DNA from: a bacterium HR16
GTDB taxonomy: Bacteria > Armatimonadota > HRBIN16
NCBI GenBank assembly: GCA_002898895.1
Contig: BEHS01000002.1
Span: forward strand, 1-57,084
DNA length: 57,084 nt
Direction of reading: 5' to 3'
Shown: in pieces, positions 5,959 through 46,709 of the stretch
Numbering within the stretch: the first letter of the stretch is position 1
Layout: each line of letters begins with the position of its first letter
Made by a program: the position numbers and the translations under genes
The notes under the pieces: model-generated
Told to the model about the DNA's origin: nothing
The model's input: only the letters and a program-made list of their open reading frames with translations
Databases searched by the model: none

Positions 5959-7203
5959 CTACTTTCGCCGTGCGAGCGTGCGTCTGCGCATCGCGCCCGC
6001 CAGTCCCAACAGCCCCGTGCTGAAGAGAACCAGCGTTGACGCATCAGGCACAGGTGTGCCGGAAACGGAAAGGAACAGCCCTCGCTGTCCTGACCCGGGT
6101 CCGGCGAACTGCGCGATATACCCCGCAGGTACCCGCATCTGTAGAAAGTCGTTCGTTGTGTTCAGAGTGAACGGCACCTGCAGATCGAACCATTTCCCCG
6201 ACGAAGGTTCGTAGAAGAAGGGACGTAGAGTGGACTCAATGATGGGCATCCATTTGGGGTCTTTGACGTCGATCAGCTGCCCCTCGCCCTCCTGACCATC
6301 TTCATATGGGATGGTGATATCGAAGAAGACGTCGAAAAAGGAGCTGACCTGCGGCGTTTGCTCCGTGCTGATGTGTACCCCTTTCATCATGCGCTCCACA
6401 CCGGCTGGCACGTTCAGCGGGTCAGGCATAGAGTGGAACTCGGTGGCACTGAACACCAGCTCGTTGTCCGCAGTGAACAGGTTATCGGGGATGTCTATTT
6501 CCGCGTTCAAGGTGTGCGGAGTGAAGGGAAGCTCATCCGGGAAGCCCAGCACCTCCAGATGCGCGTCCTTGTTGGGACCAACAGGGGCTTGCGCTTTTCG
6601 AATGGGTGCGGTTGAAGACTTGTTCGCCTCATTCTTATCGTCCTGTGAGATGGTGGTCACATCGTCGTTTTTGGTGTCACCGCCCTGAGGGTCTTTGATT
6701 TTGCCCGTTTTGCTGCGAGTGCCTCCCTGATGTGTCAGACGCAGGGTGTGACTCAACTCATGCTTCATCGTGCTGACAGGGTTCTTCTTGTCGTCGTCGT
6801 TGAATCCCCATCCCTTCTCGAATTTCGGGTCAATCACCACCGAACGTTTCGTGACCTCGCGGTTTTTGTCGATGTTGTCAAAGGTGGTATGCGCGCCACC
6901 TCCGCCCGACTTACCTGTTTTGATTTCAATGTCGTGGTCACCAGCTGTACCCTCTACAAACTCCCAGCCGGTATCCGCTTTGACACCGTTCCAGTTGTCC
7001 ATCGCCTCCTTCACGATGTCCTTGAGCTTTTTCCCGCCGAACTCCTTGTCGGCATCGGCGGCGTTGACGTGCACCTTTAACTTGCGCTTCTTGTCCTTCC
7101 AGTCCCACGTGTCGTTGATGCCGGCGAAGGAGGGGAGGACGAAGGTGCAAACCACCGCCAGCATAGCGATGACGGACAGAATTGCGCGAACACGAGTTCC
7201 CAT
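5959..7203 (-). CDS. Secreted metzincin-like zinc metalloprotease with a C-terminal PEP-CTERM sorting signal
   Basis: N-terminal signal/TM segment. Zinc motif HELSHTLRLTH (HExxHxxxxxH). C-terminus VPDASTLVLFSTGLLGLAGAMRRRTLARRK (PEP-like motif, TM helix, Arg cluster). AAGGAGG RBS. Confidence 0.75.
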   Translation of the reverse strand: MGTRVRAILSVIAMLAVVCTFVLPSFAGINDTWDWKDKKRKLKVHVNAADADKEFGGKKLKDIVKEAMDNWNGVKADTGWEFVEGTAGDHDIEIKTGKSGGGGAHTTFDNIDKNREVTKRSVVIDPKFEKGWGFNDDDKKNPVSTMKHELSHTLRLTHQGGTRSKTGKIKDPQGGDTKNDDVTTISQDDKNEANKSSTAPIRKAQAPVGPNKDAHLEVLGFPDELPFTPHTLNAEIDIPDNLFTADNELVFSATEFHSMPDPLNVPAGVERMMKGVHISTEQTPQVSSFFDVFFDITIPYEDGQEGEGQLIDVKDPKWMPIIESTLRPFFYEPSSGKWFDLQVPFTLNTTNDFLQMRVPAGYIAQFAGPGSGQRGLFLSVSGTPVPDASTLVLFSTGLLGLAGAMRRRTLARRK

Positions 7204-8714: not shown

Positions 8715-11700
8715 TCACTCGATACTCACCTCACCCCACTGCGCCCAATCCCAGCCGTAGTCGCCCAGCGAATCGGTGACCAGGCGCAGCAGCACCGTTT
8801 GCCCTGACCATTCGGCGAGGGAAACCTCGAACGGTATCCATCCCTCGCCCGGGTTTACCGTTTGGTTCCACACCTCTCTGCCGTTTACCTCCACGCTAAA
8901 ACGCACGCCGTTGGACTTGCTCTCCGCGCCGTCGCGGATTCCGGCGAAACCGCGCAGCGATGCTCTCTGCTCGGGCAACCTCGTCAGGAAAGCGAGAAAA
9001 GTCTTGCCGTTGGGCGGGGGATGGGCGAAGAACCCCTTTTTGCCTACCCCGCCGGATGTGCCCGTTGCCGTAATGCCGCGCAGGTAGTCAACCGGCTCAT
9101 GCATCGCCCCGTCCAGCTCGATACCCGTGCGAAACCTCACCTGCGTCAGGTCTGTCGGCAGAGTGATGGGCGCGGGCTCCGTGTAAAGCAGAACGAGCGT
9201 ACACGGTTCGGACAGCAACGGGAAACGGTAGAGGTTGGGGGCGACGGTCCGCCATTCCACATTCCTACCGTTGAGACACGCCCGAAGGAATGGCTGCGGA
9301 GAGTAGACCTCTACCTGTGCATCTTGTGTCTGCTGAACCACCACTCGCGGACGGCTCCAGTAACCCCAGTCGAAATCGGGGGAGGCGTTCGGTCCGGGGT
9401 GTGCCTCCAGGCGAAGGCGAACCCATTGCCCGCGAAGCGTGCTCAAGTCCAGTGTGATTTGCTCCGGTGTCTTCCCCTGGACGTGCCGGGTTGCCGAGAC
9501 AGAAGCGCTTTGCCCGAAGGCAGTGACGGTGAAGATTACGCCGTCGCTTCGGCTGGCGGCGTCGGGAGAGGTGAAGCCCAGCTCGCTACGGAACTCGCAC
9601 CGGCGGTCGGCGGGCAGGGGGAGTGTGTATTCCAGCCACACCTTGCCGCCTGCCCTGGCGCGCCAGGGAGGATGCATGAAGATGCCATCGCCGGAAGGGC
9701 GTGCTACTGCACCTGTCTCGTGCTCGGTGAGGTAGCCCGTAGCACGTTTGCCTGCCCCCCGCATGTCCGTCACGCAGTATCCCACATTCCCTCGCTCTTT
9801 CCACAGCTCTGCCACAACCACCTCACGCGGCACGATGGCAAAACGCGCCCACTCCCCTTCCTGCACTCCCGCTGAAGACACCATTGCCGATTCGGAAAGG
9901 GCGTGCAAGTGCAGGGCGTTCATCTTCGGCGGTTCCGGCACCCAGGGGTAACTACTTGTCGGATTCAGCCCCAGTATCTCCTTGCCGTTGTAAGCGAGCC
10001 AGCCGGGAATCGAACCGCTTACCTGCGCCTGCGTGACACCCTCGATGCGTCTGGCAACGGTGTTCCATCTTTTGCCAATTCGCATCTCGAGACACACCCC
10101 GCTCTTCTCCTGCCGATAACGGGCAAGGTGTCCACTCGCTGTACGGTAGAGAAAGAGGGTGTCCGCCTCCCACAGGGTGGGGGCGAACTCGGGAAGGGGA
10201 CGATTTGCCTGAAACCACCGCGCTTCGTTCCACAGCATCTGTGTTGTTGCGTCCGGTTGGGAGACCTGCTGCTGCGTTAGCCACGCGAAGGTAGGAATCA
10301 CACCCATTCGGTCGTAGGCGGCGCGCCACACTGCGTAGTACTGCCACATCTGCGGGTTGGTCATGCCCAGATAGCCGTAAATCCTCGTGTGGGGGGTAAG
10401 CAGAGCGGAGCTAATCGGGTGCGCCATGCGTACGCGGCTCATCTCCCATCTGGCGTCGGCGTGGTCGATGCCCCACACATGTCGCTGCGCAAAGCTCTCA
10501 TAGCGGAAGGAGATTTCGTTCAAGCCCTCACCGGAAAGGGCAACGTTGGGCAACGCCTCGCGCAGCTCGCGGTGCAGGGCGATATTGCCCTGCATGGCGT
10601 TCATGCCGTCTATCAGCCCATTGGCGTCGTTATAAATGCACAGGGTCTGGTCCAGATGAAGAGCATCGGGCTTCAATCGGCGACATAACTCCACCATACG
10701 CTGCACGAACAGCCTGCGCCATGCTTTCGCCGCGGGGTTGATGTAGGCGAACTTGATGGGCGGGTCTGCGCGTTGCCAGTGCCAGTACATCGGCTCCCCG
10801 CTGAAGGGGTCGCGGAAGTGGTACCGCTTCAGCTGCTCGTAATCGGGGTTTTCGGGGGTGCAGCCGAAGTAGTTCACGTGGAGCATGATGCGGAAGCCCA
10901 GCCGGCGCGCCTGTTCCATCCGCTCGGCAAATCCCTCGCGTGGGGTGTAGTCAGGGTAGTTGCGGTCGTAGCCGTCCTTGCGCCAGTCCGGCACATAGAG
11001 GAGCGTCTGGTGCGGGTTCAGTCGCCTCGCCAGAGCCTGCAGCTTGTCTGTATCGTCCAGGTTGTCGATAACGACCGTCTGAATGTCCCGCACCCACGCC
11101 GGTTGCTTTTTGCGCAGGGACACCAGTCCGAAAGCGTTTTCTGCCCACCGGCGGTACATCGCCACGCCGTTCAGCCAGCTGCCTGCGTACGGGCGGATGC
11201 GCCATCTTACGGATTCCGTCTGTTGAACCCTGTCAAAGGGAGCGGTGCACCACGTTTCAAAGCCTATCCAGAACTGCCCGTCGCGGTGCTGCACGAAGAG
11301 CCGTTTGAAACGCTGCGCATTGTCCTCGGCGTGGATGAGGAAGCCTCCGCGTTTGCCCTGTATCAGCAGGAATTGTGCTTCCCACGTCATCGGGTAGTCG
11401 AACTGCATCGGCTGGAGATCACTGTCCTCGCCGAAGCGCAAACCGCTGTATCCGGGCACAAGCAGATCCCAGTCGTCGGGCAAAGTGATACCCCATTGTA
11501 ACCCCACTAGCCCCGGGCGGGCGCACTCTGCCCGCTGAATCACCACTGCCTCGCCGTCCGGCAGGGCGTGCAAGCGGGTGGTCAGGGTGTGTGTAGCACC
11601 TTGCTCTCGCCATCGGAGGGTGGTTGCTACCTCCTGCCCCGCTACTTTTTGCTCCACCTGCGCGCGGTCGTTCCAGAGGTCTCCGCTTTGCCGATGGCGG

Positions 11701-12084: not shown

Positions 12085-14868
12085 ATGAACTGGCAGGCGA
12101 AGTGGATATGGCATCCGGGCGAAGAGGCGCCGCGCAACTTCTTCTGGGCAGCACGAAAAAGCTTTGCCCTCCCCGCGCGCTTCGGGAAGGTTACCCTGAG
12201 TATTACCGCCGATTCCCGCTACTCGGTATGGGTCAACGGCAACTATATTGGGCACGGTCCCGTACGTGCGTTCCCACATCGCTGGCGGTATGATAGTTAC
12301 GATATCACCCCTCATGTCTGCTCTGGCGAGAACGTGGTAGCGGTGCTGGTACACCACTTTGGGCATTCCACCTTCCAGTATCTGGAGGCACGTGGTGGTC
12401 TGCTGGCGCAGGTGGAGTGCGATGGACAGGTGGTTGCTGCCACCGACCACACGTGGAGAGGTATCGAGCATCCCGCATACGAACGGCGAATGCCTCGCAT
12501 GGCGTGCCAGCAGGCATGGGCGGAGATGTACGATGCCCGTAAAGCACCTGCGCACTGGACTCTCGTCGGCTTCGACGACAGCGCATGGCAAAGCGCTGTC
12601 GTAGTCGGCGAGGTGGGGTGTGCGCCGTGGAAGGAGGTGCTTCCACGCGACATTCCCTTGCTCACGCAGGAGCCGATTCAGCCGGTACGCCTCATGCGGA
12701 TTCAGGCGGTGCGCCCGCCGAGACAGGTGTGGACGTTTGACCTCAAGCCCAACTTCCTGCCGGGCGACCTCACTGCCAACCCGCGCGGGTTCGTGGGGCT
12801 GGTGGCAACGGTGCTGGAGTGTTCCCGTCCGATACAGGTAAGCCTGCGCTCCATGTTCAACGGCTTCCGCGCGGTGCGCATCGACGGCACGGAGTATACG
12901 CCTCAGCAGGCGGCTGAGGGCATCGCACTCTCCTCAGGTGAGCACCTGCTGGTAGCGGATATCTCCGCCCGCTTCTATCACGAGTGGTTCTTCGGTTTCG
13001 TTTTTGACTACGACGAGGGCGAGATGCACCTGCGTTCCCCGCTTGGAGATGCTCAGGCTTATCCGTTCGTGAGTATCGGTCCGTTCCCCTCACAGGATGA
13101 TGCGGGATACCAGTCGGTGTGGCAAGCCACCTCGCTCAACCAGATTGCAAGCCATCCGGCGGTTCAACCCATCCGGTGGGAGCACACCGCCGCTGCGAAT
13201 GTGTTTGCGGATACGGTTCTCGCCAAACCGGTCTCTGCCGAGGCCAGGGTGGAGACGCCGGACGCCCTGCTCGCCGCCAACTCGAACGAGACGGTCATCC
13301 ATCCTGTGAGCGAAGGCGACGTGGAGCTGTTGATAGACTTCGGCAAGGAGCTGGTGGGTTTCTTCGAGATAGACCTGTGCGCTCCTGAGGGTACAGTAAT
13401 TGACCTGAACGCCTTCGAGTATATGGAAGACGGGCGCATTCAGTGGACGTATGGACTGCACAACACCTTCCGTTATATCGCGCGAGAGGGCTGGCAGAGC
13501 TGGCGTTCGGTGGTGCGGCGCGGTTTCCGCTACGCCACGCTCACCGTCCGTTTCCCGCAGGGGGCGAGGGAACCGGTACGCTTGCGCGGGCTGCGCTGTT
13601 ACCTGAACACCTACCCGTATGCGTATCAGGCGCAGTTCCACTGCAGTGATGCCCTGCTGAACGACATCTGGGAGATTTCGCGCCACACGGTGCGCCTGTG
13701 CAGTGAAGACACCTTCGTGGACTGCCCCTCGTATGAGCAGACTTTCTGGGTGGGAGACGCTCGCAACGAGAGCCTGTTCAGCTACACCGCTTTCGGAGAT
13801 GCGCGTCTGGCGCGGAGGTGTCTACTGCTGGCGGGCGAGTCGCTGTGGCGGTCGCCGCTGGTGGAGAGCCAGGTGCCCAGCGGCTGGGAAGATATTCTGA
13901 CCGCGTGGAGCCTGCTGTGGACGATTGCCTGCGAGGAGTACTACCGCTTCACCGGAGACCGCGCGTTTCTGGAAGAGGTGTATCCCGCTGTGCGCCAGCA
14001 GAATCAGAACATCCACGAGCGGTTCATCAACGGACAGGGGTTGCTGGAGATAGAAGCGTGGAATATGCTGGACTGGGCGCCGATGGACACTCCCCGAACG
14101 GGCGTGGTGGCGCACCAGAACATGTGGCTGGTGGAGGCGTGGCGACGCAGTGCAAAGATGGCGCGCATTCTGGGCAACGAGGCGGAGGCGGAGCTGTACT
14201 TGCGCTGGGCGGAGGAGCTGAAGCAGGCGATTAACGCGCATCTGTGGGACGAAGAGAAGCAGGCGTATATCGACTGCATCCATGCCGACGGTCGGCGCAG
14301 TACGGTTATCAGCCAGCAGACGCAGACGGTAGCCTACCTGTGCGACATCGTGCCCGACGAGAAGCGCGCGCTGTTCGAGCGGTACCTCACCGATGTGCCC
14401 GAAGGCTGGGTGCGAGTGGGTAGTCCCTTCATGATGGCGTTCACCATCGAGGCGCTGGAGAAGGCAGGCGATGTGGGGCGAATCCTGCAGCTGATACGTC
14501 GGTGGTGGGGCATGATGGTTGACGCGGGAGCCACATCCTGCTGGGAGACGTTCCCGGGCTATCTTGGTCAGGAGTGGCCCACACGCAGTCACTGCCACGC
14601 CTGGAGCGCGGCGCCGGCGTTCGCGTTGCCATCGTATGTTCTGGGGGTGCGCCCGCTGGAGCCCGGTTTCACGCGATTCGAGGTGCGTCCGTTCCTGGGC
14701 GACCTCGAGTGGGCGAAAGGAGTGGTGCCCACCCCGCACGGGGAGATAGTGGTATCCCTGCGCCGCGAGGGGGAAAGGATACGAGCACAGGTCATCGTGC
14801 CCCAGAATACGGTTGCGGTGATTGGTGGCAAGGAGTACGGCGCAGGGATGCACGAGATCACCATGTAG
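12085..14868 (+). CDS. GH78 alpha-L-rhamnosidase
   Basis: N-terminus MNWQAKWIWHPGEE; (alpha/alpha)6 catalytic-domain motifs FVDCPSYEQTFWVGDARNE and RSHCHAWSAAP. ATG 12085 sits 8 nt after GAAGGGAG; the track ORF starts at GTG 12076. Confidence 0.85.
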   Translation: MNWQAKWIWHPGEEAPRNFFWAARKSFALPARFGKVTLSITADSRYSVWVNGNYIGHGPVRAFPHRWRYDSYDITPHVCSGENVVAVLVHHFGHSTFQYLEARGGLLAQVECDGQVVAATDHTWRGIEHPAYERRMPRMACQQAWAEMYDARKAPAHWTLVGFDDSAWQSAVVVGEVGCAPWKEVLPRDIPLLTQEPIQPVRLMRIQAVRPPRQVWTFDLKPNFLPGDLTANPRGFVGLVATVLECSRPIQVSLRSMFNGFRAVRIDGTEYTPQQAAEGIALSSGEHLLVADISARFYHEWFFGFVFDYDEGEMHLRSPLGDAQAYPFVSIGPFPSQDDAGYQSVWQATSLNQIASHPAVQPIRWEHTAAANVFADTVLAKPVSAEARVETPDALLAANSNETVIHPVSEGDVELLIDFGKELVGFFEIDLCAPEGTVIDLNAFEYMEDGRIQWTYGLHNTFRYIAREGWQSWRSVVRRGFRYATLTVRFPQGAREPVRLRGLRCYLNTYPYAYQAQFHCSDALLNDIWEISRHTVRLCSEDTFVDCPSYEQTFWVGDARNESLFSYTAFGDARLARRCLLLAGESLWRSPLVESQVPSGWEDILTAWSLLWTIACEEYYRFTGDRAFLEEVYPAVRQQNQNIHERFINGQGLLEIEAWNMLDWAPMDTPRTGVVAHQNMWLVEAWRRSAKMARILGNEAEAELYLRWAEELKQAINAHLWDEEKQAYIDCIHADGRRSTVISQQTQTVAYLCDIVPDEKRALFERYLTDVPEGWVRVGSPFMMAFTIEALEKAGDVGRILQLIRRWWGMMVDAGATSCWETFPGYLGQEWPTRSHCHAWSAAPAFALPSYVLGVRPLEPGFTRFEVRPFLGDLEWAKGVVPTPHGEIVVSLRREGERIRAQVIVPQNTVAVIGGKEYGAGMHEITM

Positions 14869-14887
14869 CTATCACCTGACGAGCAGT

Positions 14888-14921
14888 GCCCCGGCAGAGC
14901 CGACATCCGGCTCACCGGGGC
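14888..14921 (+). terminator. Two-tier hairpin downstream of the rhamnosidase gene
   Basis: Outer stem GCCCCGG/CCGGGGC and inner stem GAGCCG/CGGCTC, 20 nt after the stop. There is no clear U-tract. Confidence 0.4.
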
Positions 14922-15000
14922 GTGACAAACCGGCGGGTGCAGAACGCAGGAATGCAGTGCTGCCCCATCGGGTGCGATACCATAACGGCGCTGCGCTTGG

Positions 15001-15079
15001 CTGTTTGTCGTTCCGAATCTCAGAGATGCTTCACTGCGTTACAGGAGCGCGAAACCTCCTTGCCTGCATCCAGATAATC
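15001..15079. repeat. MITE-like palindromic element, shorter/degenerate copy B
   Basis: CTGTTTGTCGTTCCGAATCTCAGAGATGCTTCAC...ATCCAGATAATC shares both ends and the core with copy A at 7531-7648. Confidence 0.45.
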
Positions 15080-15091
15080 GGTCCTGACGCT

Positions 15092-15334
15092 CTAAGAGAC
15101 GCGTCGCGGGTTGCGATTACGGGCGGGCTTGATAAAGCGAAAATGCGCAAGATAGACGGGCAATTCCCGCTCCGGGAATTGCTCGTAAAGCCAGTCAAGG
15201 AACTCAAGGCTGAAGGTTGGGTAGAGTTGCAGGCGTTCCTTGCTCACCGAATCCCGGGTCAGGATCTGCGCATTAGTGAAACCCGCATCTTTCGCTTCGC
15301 GGATCAGCCCTCTCTCCGAGAGGGCGCCCGCCAG
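15092..15334 (-). other. 80-codon in-frame continuation of the methyltransferase beyond the TGA (recoded C-terminus or decaying pseudogene tail)
   Basis: The same frame stays open to TAG 15094-15092. It encodes LAGALSERGLIREAKDAGFTNAQILTRDSVSKERLQLYPTFSLEFLDWLYEQFPERELPVYLAHFRFIKPA..., which resembles the normal C-terminal part of the family. Confidence 0.5.
15299..15331 (-). promoter_or_regulatory. Stem-loop immediately 3' of the in-frame UGA (bacterial SECIS candidate)
   Basis: In the mRNA: upper stem GCCCUCU (15325-15319) / AGAGGGC (15313-15307), apical loop CGGAG, and lower stem GCGG (15331-15328) / CCGC (15302-15299). The upper stem begins 9 nt after the UGA. Confidence 0.3.
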
Positions 15335-15919
15335 TCAGCCCGCGAAGGCGGCTTCGCTGTCGAGCACCGCGCGCGGCAGACGTCCGTTCACCACTGAATC
15401 GGCGAAGATCAGGCGTCCACCGGATTTCAACACGCGATAGAATTCGCGGAACACCTGCCCCTTTTCCGTCGAGAGGTTGATGACGCCGTTCGAGATGATC
15501 ACATCCACGCTTGCATCGTCGAGGGGGATTTGCTCCATTTTGCCTTCGCGGAACTCGACGTTGGTCATTCCGAGGATATGTTGATTCGCCCATGCCCGTG
15601 CGAGCATTTCCGGCGTCATGTCCAGCCCGATGGCGCGCCCCGTTGGTCCAACCTTTTTCGCCGCGATGAAGGTGTCAATGCCCGCGCCGCTACCGATGTC
15701 CAGCACAACTTCGCCGGGCTGCAAATCCGCGTAGCGGACCGGGTTGCCGAGCCCAAGTGCGTAGGCTGTGACCGATTCTGGCAACCACGCGATTTCGTCT
15801 GGGTTGTACAAGCTTTCCGCGACGCCTGTTCCTTGCGGGATGACGGCGCCATAGGATTCGCGCACGATGCGTGCTGCCTCGTCTGCGGAAAACCGAATGC
15901 TTTCAAACTCGTCGCTCAT
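15335..15919 (-). CDS. ArsM-like class I SAM-dependent methyltransferase, as delimited by the in-frame TGA at 15337-15335
   Basis: [35 protein letters not shown]...[30 protein letters not shown]...[10 protein letters not shown] is the arsenite-methyltransferase-type fold. ATG 15919 lies 7 nt after GGAG; the track start 15961 would overlap the upstream gene. Confidence 0.8.
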
Positions 15920-15957
15920 GGTGCATCTCCTTCTGTTGTCAGGCGCAAGACCTCCTC

Positions 15958-17370
15958 TCACGCCGGCTTGATGTTCTGGTTCATCCGGAAGAAGTTCGTC
16001 GGGTCGTACTTCTTCTTGAGCGCCACCAGCCGGTCGTAAGTCGTACCGTAGGCGAATGCGATACGGTCGGTCTCGTCTTGGGTGAGGAAATTGATGTACG
16101 CGCCGCTGCTGGCGAACGGCCGTGACTTGGCGAAAAATTCGCGCGCCCAGGCGATGCAGCGCTGATCCTCAGAAGCCGACTCCCAGCGACCATGCACGTT
16201 CAGCACGTAATTGGCGTCTCGGCTCGAGTATGCCGTCGCCTCGGGCGCTACGCGTCCCGCCTGGCCGCCGATCGTGCCGATGAAAATCTCGCACTGCGGC
16301 GACGGCAGCTTGCCGGCGTATTCGATGAGGGTGTCGATCGCGCCGTCGCCGAGCCGCGAGAAGTTGTGCGACTTCCAGTAGTTGCGCGCACCCGGCGTCA
16401 GGAGTGGATTGAAGGTTTGTTGCCAGGCGGTGTACGGCTGCACGCCGATGTGTTCGCCGAGCACCGTACCGAACCTGCGCAACGGCTCGATTAGCTTCTC
16501 GCCTTCGGTGGGTTGGCCCGCATAGAACAATATGAGTGCGACGATCTCTTTCCCGATGACGTTCTCGGGCAGGAAGGGCAGTGGAGGCGCCTTTCGCGCG
16601 ACCACCCAGACGTTGAGGTCGTCCGGCATCGTCTTGGTGAACCGGGCGAATTGCGTGAGCACGGACTTCGCTTGGTCGAACGGGAAGGCGATGAGCCCGC
16701 TCAGCACGTCCGGCCCTACAGGATGGAGTTGGAACTCGAATCTGGTCACGATACCGAAGTTCCCGCCGCCGCCACGCAGCCCCCAGAAGAGGTCGGCGTT
16801 TTCCGTTTCGCTGGCGTGTACCTTCCTGCCATCTGCCGTGACGACATCCGCCGAGAGCAGGTTGTCCACAGTCATGCCGTATTTCCGGCTCAGCCAGCCA
16901 AAGCCGCCACCGAGCGTCAGTCCGGCAACGCCCGTGGTCGAGTTGATGCCCAGCGGCGTGGCAAGCCCGTGTGCCTGCGTGGCCGCATCGACGTCGGCAA
17001 GGGTGCAGCCGGACTCGACGGACGCCCGGCGGGCGTTTGCGTCCACCTGGACGCCCTTCATCAGCGAGAGGTCGATCATCAGTCCATCATCGCAAACAGC
17101 GTTTCCCGCAATGTTGTGCCCGCCCCCTCGGATCGAGACCAGCAGGTTCTGCTCGCGCGCGAACTTGACGGCATGGATGACATCTTCTGATGACACACAA
17201 CGGGCGATTAGCGCGGGGCTGCGGTCGATCATGGCGTTCCAGACGGTTCGGGACTCCTCATAGCCGACGTCGCCAGGTAGGAGCACTGGTCCGCGGAGGC
17301 GCATCTTTAAACCGTCGAGGGTGTCCTGTTTCAGGTCGATCGCGCGACCTTCTGTCGTTTTCGCTTTCAT
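15958..17370 (-). CDS. FAD-linked oxidase of the VAO/BBE-like family
   Basis: 470 aa. FAD-binding PCMH motif VSIRGGGHNIAGN (His candidate for covalent flavin) and C-terminal BBE-type motif YINF...YDRLVALKKKYDPTNFFRMNQNIKP. Confidence 0.85.
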   Translation of the reverse strand: MKAKTTEGRAIDLKQDTLDGLKMRLRGPVLLPGDVGYEESRTVWNAMIDRSPALIARCVSSEDVIHAVKFAREQNLLVSIRGGGHNIAGNAVCDDGLMIDLSLMKGVQVDANARRASVESGCTLADVDAATQAHGLATPLGINSTTGVAGLTLGGGFGWLSRKYGMTVDNLLSADVVTADGRKVHASETENADLFWGLRGGGGNFGIVTRFEFQLHPVGPDVLSGLIAFPFDQAKSVLTQFARFTKTMPDDLNVWVVARKAPPLPFLPENVIGKEIVALILFYAGQPTEGEKLIEPLRRFGTVLGEHIGVQPYTAWQQTFNPLLTPGARNYWKSHNFSRLGDGAIDTLIEYAGKLPSPQCEIFIGTIGGQAGRVAPEATAYSSRDANYVLNVHGRWESASEDQRCIAWAREFFAKSRPFASSGAYINFLTQDETDRIAFAYGTTYDRLVALKKKYDPTNFFRMNQNIKPA

Positions 17371-17423: not shown

Positions 17424-17452
17424 ATTCTACCATTCGTGAATTGAATTGTCAA
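17424..17452 (-). promoter_or_regulatory. Near-consensus sigma70 promoter for the oxidase-methyltransferase pair
   Basis: On the minus strand: TTGACA (17452-17447), a 17-nt spacer, then TAGAAT (17429-17424). This is followed by the 10-bp palindrome ACTAGCTAGT and the hairpin GGAGTTT-CTTC-AAACTCC before the RBS. Confidence 0.55.
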
Positions 17453-17723: not shown

Positions 17724-18191
17724 GTGAGAAACCTGCCAGAAAGAAAACGTCCGGTTCATCGGGTGATTATCCTGCCCAATCGCCCAACTATCGTGTTCGT
17801 GACCGTCTGCACCCATAAACGTCTACGCTGTTTAGCCAGCGAACAGGCACATGCTCTGCTCAACGATGTCTGGCTAAAAGCAGACAGTTGGCAGGTTGGG
17901 CGATATGTGGTTATGCCTGACCATGTTCACCTGTTCGCAGCACCCACAGACCCCGATGTGGATTTAGAAAGGTGGGTCCGCTACTGGAAGTCGCTTTTTT
18001 CGCGTCCATATCAAAAGCAAATGCCAACTTTTCGTTGGCAGTCGGGATACTGGGACACAACGTTACGCTGGTTCGACAGTTACGACCAGAAATGGGAATA
18101 TGTGCGTTTGAATCCTGTGAGACACGGGTTGGTTCAAAACCCGCAGGATTGGCCCTATCAGGGCGAGTTGAATGTGCTGGCTTGGTTTTAA
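17724..18191 (+). CDS. REP-associated tyrosine transposase (RAYT; IS200/IS605 TnpA-like Y1 HUH enzyme)
   Basis: 155 aa. HUH motif VVMPDHVHLFAAP and catalytic Tyr region QKWEYVRLNPVRHGLVQNPQDWPY. No TnpB-type partner gene is present. Confidence 0.8.
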   Translation: MRNLPERKRPVHRVIILPNRPTIVFVTVCTHKRLRCLASEQAHALLNDVWLKADSWQVGRYVVMPDHVHLFAAPTDPDVDLERWVRYWKSLFSRPYQKQMPTFRWQSGYWDTTLRWFDSYDQKWEYVRLNPVRHGLVQNPQDWPYQGELNVLAWF

Positions 18192-18270: not shown

Positions 18271-21200
18271 ATGCTCAGGAGGTGTACTGTGAACTGTCTG
18301 GCTTGGGTGTTTATCATGATGGCTCTTTCAGTAACCGTATCTGCTGCCCCGACAATCGGTGTCCTGCGCGTCGAGGAACGGCAACCCGATGCGCTACAGC
18401 GTGCGATTCGTCAGGCGATACCGGAGGCGAAGGTTGTTCCGGTATCTGTAGAGCACTTCGCCAGCGGGCGCCTGCCGCAGGAAACGGCAATGCTGGTGGT
18501 TCCGGAGGCACATCGCCTGCCCGCTGTTATCGCCGAGCCGCTGCAGAAGTGGGTGCGCTCTCGAAAAGGGGTACTTTTCGTGAGCAACGAGCCGCCACTG
18601 GGCACATGGCTCTATCGCGCGGGCAAACGGTGGGTGGAGCGACAGGAAGCCCTGCACGCGCTCGCGTCCTGGCGTCCCCTGTGGCAGGAGCCTCCTGCCC
18701 CGCAAAGTGGATGGCGACGCAGCACCAACGCGCCCGAAATAGATACCTCGTGGTCGCTGGTGGACACCCCACACGGCAAAGGCTATCGTCTCCGCGTGCC
18801 CAGACTGACGAGCTGGTGCACTTACGACCTGCCCATCGAACAGCCCTTCCGCGAAGGCGAGACGCTGATGCGCTTCTGGGCGAAGGGCGATAAGAACACC
18901 CGCGCCCTCTCCATCGAGTGGCGCGAGCGCGACGGCTCGCGCTGGGTGGCAACCGTGCCTCTTTCCGAAGGGTGGAAGCAGGTTGCGCTGGAACCGGCGG
19001 ACTTCCGCTACTGGCCCGACAACCCGTCTAAAGGGCGTGGAGGTGCTGGCGACCGATTGAAACCGGAAAACGCTGTGGAGATCTCTATTGGGCTGGCGCA
19101 CAGCTTCGCCTCCTACCCGCCGAATACGCCTCTGGAAGCGGTCATCGCCGATGTGCAGATAGGCAAGACAGCCCAATCGCTGCCTACCCCGCCCAGGTTC
19201 GCGCTGGAAGGCATCGCTCCGTGGTATAAGTTCTATCAAGATGCGCAGGGACGCTGGTGCAGCGTGATGCGTCATCGTGGCGTGGGCATTGGTGGGGTGT
19301 CGCCCGGAAGGCGTATCGTCGTCCCTCTTGGCGAGCGGGCGTGCCTGTTCATAAGCGGTAAGGGGGAAACCGAAGGGAGCGCATGGGCGTGGCTTCCCAC
19401 CTTCGAGGCAAACGCTTCCCATCTCTCGGCGATTCTGCGCCCGATGCTGCGCGGTTGGCACCTGATGCGCGCAGGCACCACGCGGTTTGGCTTCTGGAAA
19501 GAGCAGAAGGTGCAATACGGCGCAGAGGTGGCGAATTGGCGAGACATACCTGTGACCCTGCGCCTCGTTGCCCGCCTTTCCTCAAAGGGCAAGCCAGAAG
19601 TGTCTCAGCAGATGTCGGTGCGCCTGCAGCCCGGCGAACGGCGTGGCGTTTCCTTCCCTGAGACCAACCTGCCAGAGGGCGAGTGGTATGTGCGGGTCAC
19701 TGCGATGGCAGCGGACGGCACGCACGACGAGCTGGAGCACTCCTTCCACGTCATCGACAAACCGGCGGCGATGCCCCTCATTCGCGTGCAGGATGGATAT
19801 TTCGTGCAGGGGGACAAACCGTTTTACGCGCACGGCATCAACTTCTGGCCGCTGTGGATAGCCGGTCAAGAGCCGGACGAATACTGGGGGCACTGGCTCG
19901 GTCCCGAACAGTACGACCCTGCGGAGGTGGAACGCGCCCTGCGCATCGCGAAGCAGGTGGGGTTTAACGTGCTGTCGATTCAGTACACGAGCCTCTCCCA
20001 CGCGTCGCAGCTGGTGGACTTTTTAGAACGAGCACGCCGTCACGGGATGACGGTGAACCTGTTCATCACCGCCGCGCATCCGTTTGGCTTCGATCCGCAG
20101 CTGTTACGCCAGCTGATAGAAGCGGCGCGCATCCCGCAGTGGGGTAACATCTTCGCGTACGACATCGCGTGGGAGCCGGCGTGGGGTACCCATGCCGAGC
20201 GCAAACGGTTTGACCCCGCATGGCGTGAATGGATTGTCGAGCAGTACGGCTCCATCGAGAACGCCGAACGCGACTGGGGCTACGCCTTGCCCCGTGAAGA
20301 GGGCGTACCTACTAACCCCACCGACGAGCAGATACTGAACGACGGCGAGTGGCGACGTATGGTAGCCGCTTACCGTCGCTTTCTGGACGACCACGTGAAC
20401 CGTGCCTACTGGCGTGTGGTGAAATTCATTCGCAGTCTGGACGGACGCCACCTCATCGGCGTACGCACGGGATACGGAGGAAACGGCAGTCCGTGGGCGG
20501 ATTATCGGATGCCGTACGACCTGCTGGCGGGTGCGCCGTTCCTGGATTTCGTCTCGCCGGAGGGGTATTCCCTTACCGAAAACTGGCAGAACTTCCGCGC
20601 CGGGGGCTTCATTACCGCCTACGCCCGCTGGGCAGGTAACGGCAAGCCCGTCTTCTGGGCGGAGTTCGGGGCGAGCATCTATCCCGACACCACCCCGGAA
20701 CGCATCGCCTACCAGCGCAGCGTGTACGAGTGGATGTACCGCATGGTGGAGGAATCGCGGGCGGACGGCAGCGCGGGCTGGTGGTTCCCGGGCGGCTACC
20801 GCACCACCGAGAACAGCGACTTCGGCATTATCCATCCCGACGGCACGCTCCGTCCGGCGGCGCGGGTGGCGCAGCAGTGGACAAATCGTCTGGCGCAGAT
20901 ACCTCTGCAAACCGATGACCGCGAGGTACACGTTATTACCTTTGACCGCGACCTGCATCCGCGAGGCTTCTCGCAGGTGTGGGCACGCCATCGCGACGAA
21001 TACCTGAAAGCGGTGGAGGCGGGTAAGCGAGTGGAGCTGCGCACGGAGGGTACAGGCACAACCAGCGAAAACGTGCCGCTGGTGGCGGTGGGCAACGTGC
21101 CCTGCAACGGCAGTAATCCACCAAAGTACCTGAACGCGCAAATCCTGCAGGTAGAGGCGATAGACGCGCAGGGCGGGGCAAGCGAGGTAGAATCCGAACA

Positions 21201-21465
21201 ACCCCTGCCGCCCGATACGCGCCTCCTGCGCGTGACGGTGATGAACACCGGCGAGGCAACGTGGGTTCCTGCCGGCAAACGGCGCGTGGAGCTGGCGACC
21301 TCATGGGGCGAGCGCAAGGTGGTGGAAAAGCCGGTCGCACGCTACGCGATAACGCTATTCGAGATTCCGTTCGTAGCGCATACCCAACCTGCGGCGATAC
21401 GCCTGCAGCTGGTAACCGAAGAGGGTAAAATCGTGCCCTTTGGCGAGCGACGCCTCTTGAAATAG
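18271..21465 (+). CDS. Large secreted protein with a clan GH-A (GH5-like) TIM-barrel glycosidase-like domain
   Basis: Signal peptide ...CLAWVFIMMALSVTVSAAP. An alternative GTG start at 18289 lies 7 nt after AGGAGG. Barrel motifs: KPFYAHGINFWP, VGFNVLSIQY, an acid/base-like strand NIFAYDIAWEP (WEP instead of NEP) and a nucleophile-like strand KPVFWAEFG. Confidence 0.65.
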   Translation: MLRRCTVNCLAWVFIMMALSVTVSAAPTIGVLRVEERQPDALQRAIRQAIPEAKVVPVSVEHFASGRLPQETAMLVVPEAHRLPAVIAEPLQKWVRSRKGVLFVSNEPPLGTWLYRAGKRWVERQEALHALASWRPLWQEPPAPQSGWRRSTNAPEIDTSWSLVDTPHGKGYRLRVPRLTSWCTYDLPIEQPFREGETLMRFWAKGDKNTRALSIEWRERDGSRWVATVPLSEGWKQVALEPADFRYWPDNPSKGRGGAGDRLKPENAVEISIGLAHSFASYPPNTPLEAVIADVQIGKTAQSLPTPPRFALEGIAPWYKFYQDAQGRWCSVMRHRGVGIGGVSPGRRIVVPLGERACLFISGKGETEGSAWAWLPTFEANASHLSAILRPMLRGWHLMRAGTTRFGFWKEQKVQYGAEVANWRDIPVTLRLVARLSSKGKPEVSQQMSVRLQPGERRGVSFPETNLPEGEWYVRVTAMAADGTHDELEHSFHVIDKPAAMPLIRVQDGYFVQGDKPFYAHGINFWPLWIAGQEPDEYWGHWLGPEQYDPAEVERALRIAKQVGFNVLSIQYTSLSHASQLVDFLERARRHGMTVNLFITAAHPFGFDPQLLRQLIEAARIPQWGNIFAYDIAWEPAWGTHAERKRFDPAWREWIVEQYGSIENAERDWGYALPREEGVPTNPTDEQILNDGEWRRMVAAYRRFLDDHVNRAYWRVVKFIRSLDGRHLIGVRTGYGGNGSPWADYRMPYDLLAGAPFLDFVSPEGYSLTENWQNFRAGGFITAYARWAGNGKPVFWAEFGASIYPDTTPERIAYQRSVYEWMYRMVEESRADGSAGWWFPGGYRTTENSDFGIIHPDGTLRPAARVAQQWTNRLAQIPLQTDDREVHVITFDRDLHPRGFSQVWARHRDEYLKAVEAGKRVELRTEGTGTTSENVPLVAVGNVPCNGSNPPKYLNAQILQVEAIDAQGGASEVESEQPLPPDTRLLRVTVMNTGEATWVPAGKRRVELATSWGERKVVEKPVARYAITLFEIPFVAHTQPAAIRLQLVTEEGKIVPFGERRLLK

Positions 21466-22252: not shown

Positions 22253-23392
22253 TTATGCCAGCTGTTTCTTCAGCCACGCGAACGCGCTGGCTTGCATCTG
22301 CAGGTCAAACTTGTGTCCGCCCGGGTAGAACTCGCCCACATAGTTGTCCGGTGCGCCTGCGCGACGATAGTGAGACGCAATACGCTGATGCGCCGCACGC
22401 ATTCCCTCCTGCGTGAACAGACCATCATCGAGGTCGTACTGCACCATCAGCGGCGAGGGGGCACGGCACGCGGCAAGGTCGGACCAGTCACCATAACGCG
22501 CCCATCCCCAGGGTAGAACCATCCATGTGTGCGTCACCACGTTGTGGTCCAGCAGGTGCTCAAAGGTGCTCATCATGCCCACGATGACCGCCGCGCGGAT
22601 GCGGTCGCAGGTCGCCTGAAGCAGGGCGGAACGGCAACCTCCGCCCGATAGTCCCACACATCCTATCGCGTCCGCGCGCACGTCGCTACGGGAGGCGAGA
22701 TAGTTCGCCGCCACGCGGTCTTCATAGCTGACCACACCAGCCAGCGTCGTGCCCAGCAGGTGGCAGTACTTCTCGACAGTGTGTTCATGGAACGCCGAGA
22801 CACTGTTGAACAGGGAAATCTCGTCGGGTGTGCTCTCGTTTCTCCACCGCGAATGAATAGCAGTGCCAACGCTTCTGTCCCAATCGGGAATATCGCTTAG
22901 CGGGAACTTGCGACTGCCCCACAGGAACACATCGGGAACCAGCACCACGAAGCCCTCCTTCGCCAGCGCGTTGGCGAAGGCACGACCGCCGTAGTATGCC
23001 TCGCGGAAGGGGACCAGCACAGGAGGAGTATCCTCCGGGCCATCGGCGATTTTCTCTTTGCCGTAGTACTTGAAGCCGCCATGGTCGTGCAGAGCGATCA
23101 CACCGGGCAGAGGTTCCTTCGCGCCCTCGGGTTTCAACAGCCAGGCGTGCGTGCGAGGACCGTACCCTACCGACCACGATACCTCTTCGCCTTCCAGTCC
23201 GTCGCGCTTCCAGCGCCGCTCTACTCTGACCTCGTGCGGGCGTTCGTCCTCGAAATGAAAGCCCAGAATCTCCCGGATGCGCTGTTGCGTTTTCTTGCCC
23301 GGCGGGGCTGTCGGATACAGTTTATGTGCCCTCTTCGCGGCATCTACCCAATCGCTGTATACTCCCAGATGTTGATAGGTGCGTGACATCAT
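22253..23392 (-). CDS. Alpha/beta-hydrolase (dienelactone hydrolase / acetyl-xylan-esterase-like)
   Basis: Nucleophile elbow CVGLSGGG, upstream HDHGG segment and C-terminal GGHKF. Start assigned to ATGATG at 23392/23389, after GAGGAGAG; the track start is 23464. Confidence 0.7.
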   Translation of the reverse strand: MMSRTYQHLGVYSDWVDAAKRAHKLYPTAPPGKKTQQRIREILGFHFEDERPHEVRVERRWKRDGLEGEEVSWSVGYGPRTHAWLLKPEGAKEPLPGVIALHDHGGFKYYGKEKIADGPEDTPPVLVPFREAYYGGRAFANALAKEGFVVLVPDVFLWGSRKFPLSDIPDWDRSVGTAIHSRWRNESTPDEISLFNSVSAFHEHTVEKYCHLLGTTLAGVVSYEDRVAANYLASRSDVRADAIGCVGLSGGGCRSALLQATCDRIRAAVIVGMMSTFEHLLDHNVVTHTWMVLPWGWARYGDWSDLAACRAPSPLMVQYDLDDGLFTQEGMRAAHQRIASHYRRAGAPDNYVGEFYPGGHKFDLQMQASAFAWLKKQLA

Positions 23393-23625
23393 TGCTCTCC
23401 TCGTGGTCTGTAAACGTGTCCTTCGGAAGATAGTCCACTTGACACGGATGCAACGGATGGACACGGTTGAATTATCCGCGTTAATCCGTGTCCTCTGAGA
23501 ATTGTTTTCTGTTTCGGCTTGCTCTGAGGTTCTTCCTTCTCCGAGTGAAGGCAGAAGGAGCGCAGGGATAGCGGTTAGTAGTTGCGAACATACAGGTAAC
23601 GCACCTGTAGCGAGGGGGGAGAGCT

Positions 23626-38553: not shown

Positions 38554-39777
38554 TTATCGCGTTTGCACGAACCGCATGAAGTTCTCGCGATCGATGCAGC
38601 GCAGTACCGCTTCCTCAAACGAAACCAGCCCGTTCAGGTGCAGGTCCGCCAGTGCGCGGTCCATCGTTTGCATCCCCTGCTGGGCGCTGGTTTCCATGAT
38701 GGAGTAAATCTGGTGTACCTTACCTTCCCGAATCAGGTTGCGGATAGCGGAGGTAGCAATCATAATCTCTACCGCCGCCACTCGTCCGCCCCCCAGCATA
38801 GGCAACAGTTGCTGGGCAATCACCGACTCCAGCGTGTTCGCCAGCTGGATGCGGATTTGCTCTTGCTGTTCTGGCGGGAACACGTCCACCACACGGTCAA
38901 TCGTCTGCGGGGCGTTGCGCGTGTGCAGGGTGGCGAACACCAGGTGTCCGGTTTCCGCCAGGGTAAGTGCGGCGCGGATGGTCTCCAGGTCGCGCATTTC
39001 GCCCACCAGAATCACATCGGGGTCTTCACGCAGCACCGCGCGCAGTGCGTTGTGGAACGAGTCGGTATCTGTGCCCAGCTCGCGCTGGTTTACCATGCTG
39101 TTTTTATGGGTATGCAAGTACTCGATAGGGTCTTCGATAGTCATGATATGGCAATTGCGCTCGGTATTGATGACATCGATCATTGATGCGATAGTAGTAG
39201 ACTTACCGGAACCGGTAGGGCCTGTTACCAGAATCAACCCGCTGTGGCGTCGGGTCAGCTCGCGCAGGATAGCCGGCAGGCGCAGTTGCTCCAGAGAGGG
39301 GATCGACGAGGGGATAGCGCGCATAGCGCATCCCACCGAGCCGCGCTGTCGGTACACGTTGAAGCGGAACCTGCCGACATCCTTCACGCCGTACGAGAAG
39401 TCCAGCTCCTTTGTTTTCTCGAACTTCTGTATCTGCTCGCCGGTCAGAATATCATACACCAGCCTCTGGATATCGCGTGGGCTCAGGGGTTCAAAAGGCA
39501 ACGGGTAGAGTCGTCCATCTACGCGCACCATCGGTGGTAGCGACGCCGACAGATGCAGGTCGGATGCACCTTTCTCCACCGTCATGCGCAGCAAATCGTC
39601 GATGTGCATATCATCGATGGAGAGCGTCTCTCCATCGGATGTGCGGCGTTCCGCTGTAGCGGTGGCGACCGCTACGGCGCCCTGAAGATGCCCGGCAGGA
39701 TTGTCTTCATCCAGAGGCACCAGTTCTTCCATGTCATCGCGTCGGTCTATCTGTTGCTGCAGGTAGCTCTGCTCCAT
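38554..39777 (-). CDS. pilT: Twitching-motility retraction ATPase (PilT family) with a ~55-aa N-terminal extension
   Basis: ASDLHLSASLPPMVRVDG, Walker A GPTGSGKSTT, Asp box, Walker B ILVGEMRD and His box [17 protein letters not shown] before ATG 39777. Confidence 0.88.
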   Translation of the reverse strand: MEQSYLQQQIDRRDDMEELVPLDEDNPAGHLQGAVAVATATAERRTSDGETLSIDDMHIDDLLRMTVEKGASDLHLSASLPPMVRVDGRLYPLPFEPLSPRDIQRLVYDILTGEQIQKFEKTKELDFSYGVKDVGRFRFNVYRQRGSVGCAMRAIPSSIPSLEQLRLPAILRELTRRHSGLILVTGPTGSGKSTTIASMIDVINTERNCHIMTIEDPIEYLHTHKNSMVNQRELGTDTDSFHNALRAVLREDPDVILVGEMRDLETIRAALTLAETGHLVFATLHTRNAPQTIDRVVDVFPPEQQEQIRIQLANTLESVIAQQLLPMLGGGRVAAVEIMIATSAIRNLIREGKVHQIYSIMETSAQQGMQTMDRALADLHLNGLVSFEEAVLRCIDRENFMRFVQTR

Positions 39778-39793
39778 GCGAATCTCCTCCTTG

Positions 39794-40669
39794 TCAGGCT
39801 GCCATGCTGTGAAGCCCTGCGCTCCGCTCCACCTCTACGCGGCATCCCTCTATCAGCGTTTCGATCTGCTCGGGTGTGATGTTCAATACTTTCATGGCAT
39901 CCTCGTTAATGAGGTTGTGCCAGTGCTCAGCGTCTGCACCTGTTTCCAGTGCATTGGATATATCGCTGGCGATGGCGACCACGGCAACCAGATTTGGCGC
40001 CGCAGAGGCGGCGGGGATGTAATGGTGATAGCCGATTGCTTCGCCCAGCACGGTGGGCAGATTCCAGTGGATGGCAAGCGCCAGCCCGACGTCGGCGTGG
40101 TTGAAACCGAGAATCTGTTCCTCCGCCTCATGGTGGCGGATACCCAGCCGCTCCGCCGTCTGCACCACCTGTATCATCGCTTGAGGATAGTATTGCTCAA
40201 GCACCGTTTTGCCGATGTCGTGCAGCAAGCCCGCGGCGAAAGCCTCATCGGGAACCACATCGGCTGCGTAGGCGCATACCAGGCGCGTGAGCAAGGAGGT
40301 GTCTACCGAGTGTTTCCAGATGCGCCTCTTCAGCAGGCTCTGGCTATCGGACTTGCCGATGAACATGTTGTAGCAGGACGCGGTCATGGCGATGTTACGC
40401 ACCGTGCGGAAGCCCAGGAACATCACCGCCTCACGCAGTGAGCTCACCCGCCTGGGCAACCCGTAGTAGGAAGAGTTTGCCAGTGTCAGCACCTTGCTGG
40501 TTAGCCCCTGGTCCTGCCCAATCACGTCTTCCAGTTCCTGCGTGGTCGCGCGAGTGTTGCTGGTCATATCCAGCACTTTCATGACCACTTGCGGTAGCAT
40601 GGCGATTTCGCCGATGTTTTGCACCACTTCTTGGGGCGACTTGGGAAACACCCCGATATGTGAACTCAT
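39794..40669 (-). CDS. HDOD-domain signalling protein
   Basis: LPQVVMKVLDMTSNTRATTQELEDVIGQDQGLTSKVLTLANSSYYGLPRRVSSLREAVMFLGF...GLLHDIGK. Confidence 0.8.
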   Translation of the reverse strand: MSSHIGVFPKSPQEVVQNIGEIAMLPQVVMKVLDMTSNTRATTQELEDVIGQDQGLTSKVLTLANSSYYGLPRRVSSLREAVMFLGFRTVRNIAMTASCYNMFIGKSDSQSLLKRRIWKHSVDTSLLTRLVCAYAADVVPDEAFAAGLLHDIGKTVLEQYYPQAMIQVVQTAERLGIRHHEAEEQILGFNHADVGLALAIHWNLPTVLGEAIGYHHYIPAASAAPNLVAVVAIASDISNALETGADAEHWHNLINEDAMKVLNITPEQIETLIEGCRVEVERSAGLHSMAA

Positions 40670-40698
40670 CTGTCTACCTCCGATGCGTCTTGTTTGGT

Positions 40699-42423: not shown

Positions 42424-42543
42424 GGCTGGTGCGTGCTCCTCGGCGAGCGATACCGCTCGTTCCTTTCATACAGAACGCGCGGAGGGCGAGTGCGATGTAG
42501 GGGCATCGCGGCTCACCCTCCTCATCACACGGATGCCTCCACT

Positions 42544-44847: not shown

Positions 44848-45463
44848 TCGGATTACCTCCCGGACGCAAGGTCACTATTTTGCCGTCTTTTTCGAGAACG
44901 ATTCCTTCGCGCAACACCGTACGCAACACATAGCCGCCTTCCAGCTGACTGCCCGGCTGTGCGATGCGCTGGCTGCCATTCTCCTGGCGCAGTATCGCCA
45001 CCGGATACTCGCCCACCACCACGCCGGTTACCGAAATGCTCGGTTCCGATTCGGGCTGAGGTGCAGGCACGGGCTGAGTGTTTACAGATGGGCTTGCGTT
45101 GCCCGATCCTGCCGACACAGCACCGACCGGCATCGGTGGTAATGCGCTGATGTTTGGTGCCGACGCCATTCGTGGAGGCGCAGGGCGCGCGGTCTGTGCC
45201 TGTGACCGCTTCAGGTTATCGAACTGCGGCGGTATCACAAAGGGGTCGCGCGCCGGTTCGGACGAACTGAGCCAGGGCGGCGCGGTTGTCTGTTGCTCCG
45301 CCTCTTTTGCCGATTGAGCGGAGGCGGTCGTTGCCGAGCTCTTAGTGCTGGCGCCGGTGGAACCGGCGAAGAACATCTGGTAGACTGCATAGCCGATGGC
45401 TGCCAGGAACAGAACGCCCAGCACGGTAACCTGCTGTAACTGCTTGCGGTCAAGTGTTTTCAT
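44837..45463 (-). CDS. PilP-like pilus assembly protein (single TM, Pro/Ala/Ser-rich linker, C-terminal beta domain)
   Basis: Lies between pilO and pilQ with overlapping stops and starts. The C-terminus VTGVVVGEYPVAILRQENGSQRIAQPGSQLEGGYVLRTVLREGIVLEKDGK is PilP/GspC-like. Confidence 0.5.
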   Translation of the reverse strand: MKTLDRKQLQQVTVLGVLFLAAIGYAVYQMFFAGSTGASTKSSATTASAQSAKEAEQQTTAPPWLSSSEPARDPFVIPPQFDNLKRSQAQTARPAPPRMASAPNISALPPMPVGAVSAGSGNASPSVNTQPVPAPQPESEPSISVTGVVVGEYPVAILRQENGSQRIAQPGSQLEGGYVLRTVLREGIVLEKDGKIVTLRPGGNPNAK

Positions 45464-46684: not shown

Positions 46685-46709
46685 AGCGGTACCTCCTCTC
46701 CCCGTGCGG

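Follow-up and report, generated by a model that had tools for sequence, protein, structure and literature searches.

All arsenite (As(III)) S-adenosylmethionine (SAM) methyltransferases contain four conserved cysteines, all of which are needed to methylate As(III) (PMC6138428). Cys174 and Cys224 make up the metalloid site, and dimethylarsenite (DMAs(III)) is held by Cys224 alone (PMC6138428). Forms that contain selenocysteine (Sec) are also on record. In Table 1 of Zhang et al. 2026 (PMC13188914), an arsenite methyltransferase represented by the NCBIfam model NF008823, with one Sec in the motif UxxG, is listed as experimentally verified (Fomenko et al. 2007), and the same review lists three ArsM-type families with multiple Sec from Haft & Tolstoy 2025. 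Here, these are compared with a gene on the minus strand of a 57,084 nt stretch of DNA from bacterium HR16 (Armatimonadota; contig BEHS01000002.1, positions 1 to 57,084), referred to below as the window. Positions 15919-15092 very probably form a single, unbroken gene that encodes a selenoprotein of 275 residues, a class I SAM-dependent methyltransferase in which an in-frame UGA is decoded as Sec. The annotated product of 194 aa would then lack the final third of the protein, because translation would go on past the UGA.

Like the known ArsM selenoprotein, the predicted HR16 protein belongs to the ArsM superfamily and would carry a single Sec in a U-x-x-G motif, aligned with Cys224 of CmArsM (Cys206 of AS3MT), with a candidate Sec insertion sequence (SECIS) immediately downstream and inside the open reading frame (ORF). 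However, the clade to which it belongs lacks the other three cysteines of the arsenite methyltransferases (AsMTs), scores below the NF008823 cutoff and lies outside ars gene contexts. The families NF047649 (methyltransferase/UXPK-star double selenoprotein), NF041536 (ArsM/DUF2284) and NF041537 (ArsM/AhpD) share the ArsM-like domain and the Sec in UxxG, but their members contain two to three Sec and, in addition, either a further domain or a U-x-P-K-stop at the C-terminus. Neither is seen in the window gene, with its single TGA, its single domain and the C-terminus ...FIKPARNRNPRRVS (...KPARNRNPRRVS). Sec at the UxxG of ArsM-like enzymes, with a SECIS inside the ORF, is already known, and the kind of gene found here is less new than was assumed in the original prediction, which had been made from the letters of the window. 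Judged against the review listing and the NCBIfam models, what is new is a multi-phylum clade that has lost three catalytic cysteines, occurs mostly in the Sec form and falls below every curated model. The result extends the known picture of ArsM-type selenoproteins and overturns nothing; it amounts to an annotation correction, together with a suggestive single-Sec active site.

The interrupted reading frame and its relatives

The frame opens at the ATG at 15919-15917, runs for 194 codons to the TGA at 15337-15335, and then continues for 80 further in-frame codons, LAGALSERGLIREAKDAGF...YLAHFRFIKPARNRNPRRVS, up to the TAG at 15094-15092. A second reading of the sequence agreed with the original prediction on these limits. 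The features of the gene are as follows.

15092-15919, minus strand: predicted complete selenoprotein gene, ArsM-like class I SAM-dependent methyltransferase, 275 codons (194 + Sec + 80) plus TAG
15335-15337, minus strand: TGA, putatively read as Sec (residue 195, motif U-L-A-G), the counterpart of CmArsM Cys224
15095-15334, minus strand: coding tail after the UGA, 80 codons, LAGALSERGLIREAK...YPxF..FLDWL..HFRFxKP, in frame in all loci
15926-15933, minus strand: Shine-Dalgarno-like GAAGGAGA, read from the sequence, with GGAG 7 nt 5' of the ATG
15677-15709, minus strand: SAM-binding motif, residues 71-81, within matches to Methyltransf_31/11/25
15740-15757, minus strand: LGLGNP, residues 55-60, with Leu at the canonical Cys72 column
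15473-15493, minus strand: SNGVINL, residues 143-149, with Gly at the column of the canonical As-binding Cys174

A search over 5.8 billion proteins returned about 120 clusters that are 62-99 % identical to the window protein. Almost all of the nearest clusters are 192-198 aa long, and 118 of the 120 stop at the TGA column, ending in ...AAFAG. In 119 of the 120, [ST]NG[VA] is present and not SNCV. A genome scan, with one genome for each species, yielded 18 related loci (56-94 % amino acid identity) from at least five phyla, namely Thermoflexus and other Chloroflexota (Anaerolineales and Dehalococcoidia), Calditrichaceae, a 'Deltaproteobacteria' metagenome-assembled genome (MAG), Armatimonadota and Bacillota. 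In all 18, TGA stands at the same column, and the 71-85 conserved in-frame codons after it have the common pattern LAGAL...AGF...RLxLYPLF..FLDWLF...PIY..HF..KP. The TGA is present too in loci L029 and L030. When a library clustered at 50 % identity was searched exhaustively, it yielded six further clusters that are truncated at the same column (P0125, P0130, P0142, P0253, P0256 and P0260).

The lone 'full-length' match, P0001 (L030, 130-1047), has W in the column where the DNA has TGA. In this JGI call, Trp is assigned to the Sec-TGA as well as to the true TGA stop, giving a protein of 305 aa with a nonsense C-terminal extension, and it looks as though a code with TGA as Trp had been applied to a short contig. 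On the contig of P0256, the tail after the TGA has been called as a separate ORF of 72 aa that starts at the next codon. Locus L017 (about 10000-10575, in a Chloroflexi MAG) has only 92 open codons before the TGA, and its upstream pN (proportion of nonsynonymous differences) jumps to 0.43. This suggests a frameshift in the N-terminal half, either an assembly error or a real pseudogene; the TGA, the hairpin described below and the tail are still intact there.

The original prediction had left open that the true codon is TGC or TGT and that the TGA is a sequencing or assembly error, which is a general possibility in metagenome assemblies. However, four independent assemblies of a near-identical strain (8-10 of 828 nt different), made from separate samples (ENA ERZ511473, ERZ511475 and ERZ27245786; JGI 3300022554), all show the TGA, and therefore assembly error is excluded as its source. 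As TGA is also found in every other lineage, we regard the chance of an error at this codon as vanishingly small.

A very recent pseudogene was the other alternative raised at the outset, with a nonsense mutation (e.g. TGC to TGA) in an ArsM-like gene and a downstream frame that has not yet decayed. A single window cannot separate a fresh nonsense mutation from recoding, and both gene callers and NCBI annotate the 194 aa product. Selection on the tail was measured in 12 sequences (66 pairs), using 69 codons after the TGA and 150 before it. The median pN/pS, where pS is the synonymous divergence, is 0.19 in the tail and 0.16 upstream, and pS is about 0.67. Purifying selection acts on the tail as it does on the body of the gene. 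A pseudogene would be expected to show decay in the 80 downstream codons, and none was found; synonymous sites are saturated, the tail is free of frameshifts, and the TGA recurs at the same column across the multi-phylum loci and the closest protein clusters. Together, the cross-phylum TGA and the constrained tail effectively refute a recent nonsense mutation, and we consider it extremely improbable.

Three full-length homologues, P0126, P0146 and P0196, have Cys in the TGA column, in the context ...AAWAG-C-[LIV][SA]G. They keep the Cys-poor background of the clade (LGVG[ND] and SNGV) and the YPLF motif of the tail. In the same alignment, canonical ArsMs have LGCGNP, SNCVINL, G-C-[IV]-x-G-A and N-terminal Cys pairs. 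A true selenoprotein is classically recognised by a position at which homologues alternate between UGA and Cys. The column is either UGA or Cys among the homologues, with relatives reading on in frame past the TGA, and it therefore has the signature of a Sec/Cys pair.

Public annotations give members of the clade, in truncated form, the name 'methyltransferase domain-containing protein', and a spurious antisense ORF is often placed on top of the tail. Such antisense ORFs of 146-191 aa, overlapping the tail after the UGA, are seen at 14822-15397 (plus strand) in the window, at 10523-10963 (minus strand) in L021 and at the equivalent places in L022-L024, and in several assemblies they have been entered as genes by the gene callers. 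They are most likely spurious calls that fill the space left by truncation at the UGA. More than 100 protein clusters in several phyla appear to be mis-annotated in this way, so that a new selenoprotein model is clearly called for, and the gene would add a selenoprotein to Chloroflexota and Armatimonadota.

The hairpin behind the TGA and the decoding of the codon

The mRNA can form a hairpin a short distance past the TGA, and its parts are listed here.

15307-15325, minus strand: putative core hairpin of a bacterial SECIS (bSECIS), GCCCUCU-CGGAG-AGAGGGC, with a 7 bp stem
15319-15325, minus strand: 5' arm of the hairpin, GCCCUCU
15314-15318, minus strand: loop of the hairpin, CGGAG
15307-15313, minus strand: 3' arm of the hairpin, AGAGGGC

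The hairpin begins 9 nt past the UGA, and its apical loop begins 16 nt past it. In an alignment of 19 sequences that begins with the Gly codon preceding the TGA and extends 45 nt beyond the TGA, 93 % of the cells in the stem are paired. Four of the seven stem pairs have changed on both sides, with CUCU/AGAG becoming CUUG/CAAG or CUGG/C[UC]GG, and the swaps seen across relatives are GC/CG, CG/UA/GC and UA/GC. The apical loop, C-G-G-A-G, shows virtually no variation. Covariation was scored at 0.406, compared with 0.114 or less in slid controls, and none of 500 shuffles reached 0.406. RNAalifold returned the same stem. A distant Sec form, L029, has a 7 bp hairpin of another sequence, ACCGAAC-AGGU-GUUCGGU, from 15 nt after the TGA.

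The original prediction had placed the core on a 4 bp lower stem (15331-15328 / 15302-15299). This outer part did not hold up, with only 57 % of its cells paired across relatives, and it was rejected as a conserved element; the core was borne out by its pairing and covariation.

The bSECIS consensus model reportedly goes back to Zhang and Gladyshev in 2005. The published constraints are an apical loop of 3-9 nt of the form N1-G-[G/U]-N-N2, a stem of 4-16 bp, a distance of 16-37 nt from the UGA and a minimum free energy (MFE) of -7.5 kcal/mol or lower (PMC13188914). The window hairpin falls within all four limits (5 nt loop, 7 bp, 16 nt and, for the 46 nt stretch, an MFE of -23.4 kcal/mol), so that the earlier suggestion that its spacing and G-containing loop fit a bacterial SECIS was upheld, with the GG of the loop invariant. 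As in the Escherichia coli fdhF-type SECIS, the hairpin lies in the ORF directly 3' of the UGA, and it shares with the consensus model a small apical loop with G-G early in it and a spacing inside the 16-37 nt range. However, its sequence does not resemble those of the E. coli elements, its spacing of 16 nt is the lower limit of the consensus, and it has no conserved lower stem.

The interpretation of the in-frame TGA as a Sec codon with its own recoding hairpin is supported, and on these comparisons we hold it with high confidence. A number of points weigh against it. The genes selA, selB and selD and a tRNA-Sec were not found in the 57 kb window or in the flanks of the related loci: ARAGORN detected no tRNA-Sec in the window or the 18 loci, a Pfam scan of the 20 largest ORFs of the window revealed no Sec machinery, and regular expressions for SelA, SelB and SelD motifs, run over the window and the related-locus DNA, gave no match. 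The window hairpin taken alone is modestly better than shuffles (z = -2.06). The compensatory changes are confined to a few clades and represent about two to three independent events; because of this, and because the hairpin is within the coding sequence, co-variation of the protein is not fully separable from RNA constraint. Searches with Rfam found no SECIS or other RNA family in the whole window at the gathering threshold, and chance hits only in 15250-15400 at permissive E-values. A structure prediction for P0001 from a shallow alignment, with a mean predicted local distance difference test score (pLDDT) of 61 and values below 50 in the tail, was too poor for the active site, and the gene neighbourhood is variable.

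Rfam covers bacterial SECIS elements poorly. As to the machinery, locus L005, which carries a related gene, is from a MAG assigned to Anaerolinea thermophila. Strain UNI-1 of this species is reported to have the Sec-specific elongation factor (SelB) but no annotated Sec-containing dehydrogenase (PMC4959059). We take this report as mildly supportive only of Sec recoding.

The UGA could also be passed without Sec, by near-cognate readthrough as Trp or Cys helped by the hairpin or by reassignment of UGA in the lineage, or the locus could make two polypeptides, the 194 aa enzyme and a re-initiated tail of 80 aa. The absence of Sec machinery from the window and the locus flanks is in keeping with this, as is the pipeline that translated the codon of P0001 as Trp. 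However, TGA is the commonest genuine stop among the well-supported genes of the window (11 of 28), and the code is therefore not reassigned; TGA also terminates the tails of many homologues. Re-initiation is opposed by conservation that begins at the first codon after the TGA (LAGAL, compared with CLAGAL in ArsM) and by the lack of a conserved start codon or ribosome-binding site. In the Cys forms the column holds Cys, and it is never Trp, the GG loop and spacing of the hairpin are specific to a SelB-type SECIS, and there is a precedent for Sec at this very column in the ArsM family. These readings without Sec are, in our judgement, very unlikely.

Relation to arsenite methyltransferases and the active site

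The protein is a member of a sister clade of the arsenite methyltransferases (ArsM/AS3MT), within the class I SAM-dependent methyltransferases. For profile and domain scoring of the 275-residue product, Cys was written in for the TGA. Pfam matched Methyltransf_31 (1e-31), Methyltransf_11 and Methyltransf_25, and the class I SAM-methyltransferase domain is homologous to that of ArsM. In the region of the SAM motif, D74, G76, G78, G80 and D82 are invariant in the alignment of homologues.

The cysteine columns were set by alignment to the solved ArsM structures 5evj and 4fr0/4fs8 (E = 9e-31 for 5evj and 2e-23 for 4fr0). The TGA coincides with the Cys in G-E-C-L-[AG]-G-A-L (Cys224 in CmArsM), while SNGVINL aligns to SNCVINL (Cys174) and LGLGNP to GCGNP (Cys72). 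Hence, the canonical Cys72 is replaced by Leu and Cys174 by Gly, and there is no N-terminal Cys; of the four cysteines that mark an AsMT (Cys44, Cys72, Cys174 and Cys224), the Cys224 column alone is occupied, putatively by Sec. The placing of the UGA in the ArsM Cys column was an early claim that the structures confirmed. The companion claim, that the family's remaining cysteines are absent and the enzyme would have a single Sec, turned out even stronger than stated, as the window protein contains no Cys at all. Most of its relatives lack any conserved Cys.

Compared with CmArsM and AS3MT (4FS8, 4FR0 and 5EVJ), the class I SAM-methyltransferase fold and the SAM motifs are the same, and ...SN-x-VINLS... 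and ...G-[C/U]-L-[AG]-G-A-L... align residue for residue. However, the canonical enzymes use four Cys and a disulfide cascade (PMC6138428), whereas the window protein keeps position 224 only, as the predicted Sec, and it also lacks the C-terminal domain of roughly 120 residues found in the eukaryotic enzymes.

The best NCBIfam match is to the arsenite methyltransferase model NF008823, at 246 bits (E = 4e-73), which is below the cutoff of 263. The clade members tested, whether Sec or Cys forms, scored 193-248 with this model, compared with 321-329 for canonical four-Cys ArsMs. With NF047649, NF041536 and NF041537 the window protein scored 171, 166 and 187 bits, respectively, against cutoffs of 460, 575 and 510, placing it outside these families, and no clade member tested came near these cutoffs. 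A second methyltransferase in L013 that had clustered with the clade was found to be an unrelated Methyltransf_11 protein and was set aside.

A genuine selenoprotein could still be an ordinary arsenite methyltransferase, with the missing thiols supplied by glutathione, another small thiol or a partner protein. The best family match is indeed to NF008823, the predicted Sec is at the column of the As-binding Cys224, and, since the CmArsM cycle has Cys224 as the sole ligand of DMAs(III) (PMC6138428), the enzyme could conceivably carry out a late step of methylation. However, three of the four canonical cysteines are absent, the score is short of the cutoff and far from those of the canonical ArsMs, and no arsR, arsC, acr3 or arsB was seen beside the gene in the neighbourhoods inspected, so that it is not part of an ars operon there. 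We consider an ordinary AsMT unlikely. The gene is filed here as one that would work like an ArsM-type selenoenzyme, with SAM as the methyl donor and a selenolate in the place of the metalloid ligand, and that falls outside the AsMT family proper. A methyltransferase with only the Cys224 equivalent, mostly as Sec, is a natural experiment that isolates the role of this residue, and retention of this position alone suggests that inorganic As(III) is not the substrate.

Gene neighbourhood and possible role

Two features lie upstream of the methyltransferase gene on the same strand.

15958-17370, minus strand: FAD-binding/BBE-type oxidase gene (Pfam FAD_binding_4 and BBE), 38 nt from the methyltransferase start
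17424-17452, minus strand: promoter-like site ahead of the oxidase-methyltransferase pair, TTGACA-17-TAGAAT with TG, 11/12, a consensus match only

The oxidase and methyltransferase genes are probably co-transcribed. An oxidase of the same family adjoins the methyltransferase gene in seven lineages, as judged from neighbour clustering and, in L006 and L012, from Pfam. At least eight neighbourhoods contain OsmC-like proteins and about nine contain BTAD-AAA-TPR regulators of the Streptomyces antibiotic regulatory protein (SARP) type, and SnoaL and pairs of extracytoplasmic function (ECF) sigma and anti-sigma factors were also seen. The genes of two more distant members of the clade, the Cys form P0126 and the Sec form P0256, each come immediately after a pair of ECF sigma and zf-HC2 anti-sigma genes. 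In these two contexts the methyltransferase gene overlaps the stop of the zf-HC2 anti-sigma gene, and in that of P0126 an OsmC gene follows it. In three loci (L025, 10844-13042; L026, 10844-13042; and L028, 10979-13234), a protein of approximately 730-750 aa with no Pfam hit is encoded directly downstream; it is a possible additional conserved partner.

In the mechanism that we propose, the hairpin at 15325-15307, with its loop C-GG-A-G, would act as a bacterial SECIS and bring SelB, with GTP and Sec-tRNA(Sec), to the ribosome. The UGA at 15337-15335 would be decoded as Sec and the last 80 codons then translated. The Sec would take the place of the metalloid-binding Cys224, and its lone selenolate may hold or activate a soft, single-ligand substrate beside the SAM methyl group, with chalcogen or metalloid species or a thiol-type compound as candidates. 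The classical As(III) site of three thiols and the disulfide cascade would not be used. The role would be in stress or detoxification chemistry and not in the arsenic resistance of ars operons; the FAD/BBE oxidase, OsmC-like peroxidases, SARP-type regulators and ECF sigma/zinc anti-sigma neighbours are what point to it.

Taken further, the clade may be a distinct and widespread class of Cys-free, single-Sec SAM methyltransferases that are not arsenite methyltransferases but act on a one-ligand soft substrate within modules for oxidative or electrophile stress. We put this forward tentatively. Se, Te or S species, or DMAs(III) or another late-stage organo-arsenical, can be named as example substrates in the same speculative spirit. 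Such a class would currently be invisible because every pipeline truncates its members at the UGA.

A naive scan of the window for other ORFs split by TGA produced only the noise expected of DNA with 60 % GC. An IS200-like Y1 transposase gene (possibly RAYT-like) is at 17724-18191 (plus strand), between the oxidase-methyltransferase pair and the gene for a protein of 1064 aa. Its spacing does not differ between any of the assemblies of the near-identical strain, only one of which has it called as a gene. A strain polymorphism was considered and rejected, as the intergenic distance is identical in all assemblies and it is the gene calling that differs. A cluster resembling type IV pilus or type II secretion genes occupies 38554-47927 (minus strand) and includes the following, along with some small ORFs.

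38554-39777, minus strand: T2SSE ATPase
40699-42423, minus strand: T2SSE ATPase
42544-44847, minus strand: secretin
46710-47927, minus strand: PilM

Four large ORFs of the window, at 18271-21465 (plus strand), 52779-54812, 5959-7203 and 22253-23464 (all minus strand), encode proteins of 1064, 677, 414 and 403 aa, respectively, that had no Pfam match at E <= 1e-5.

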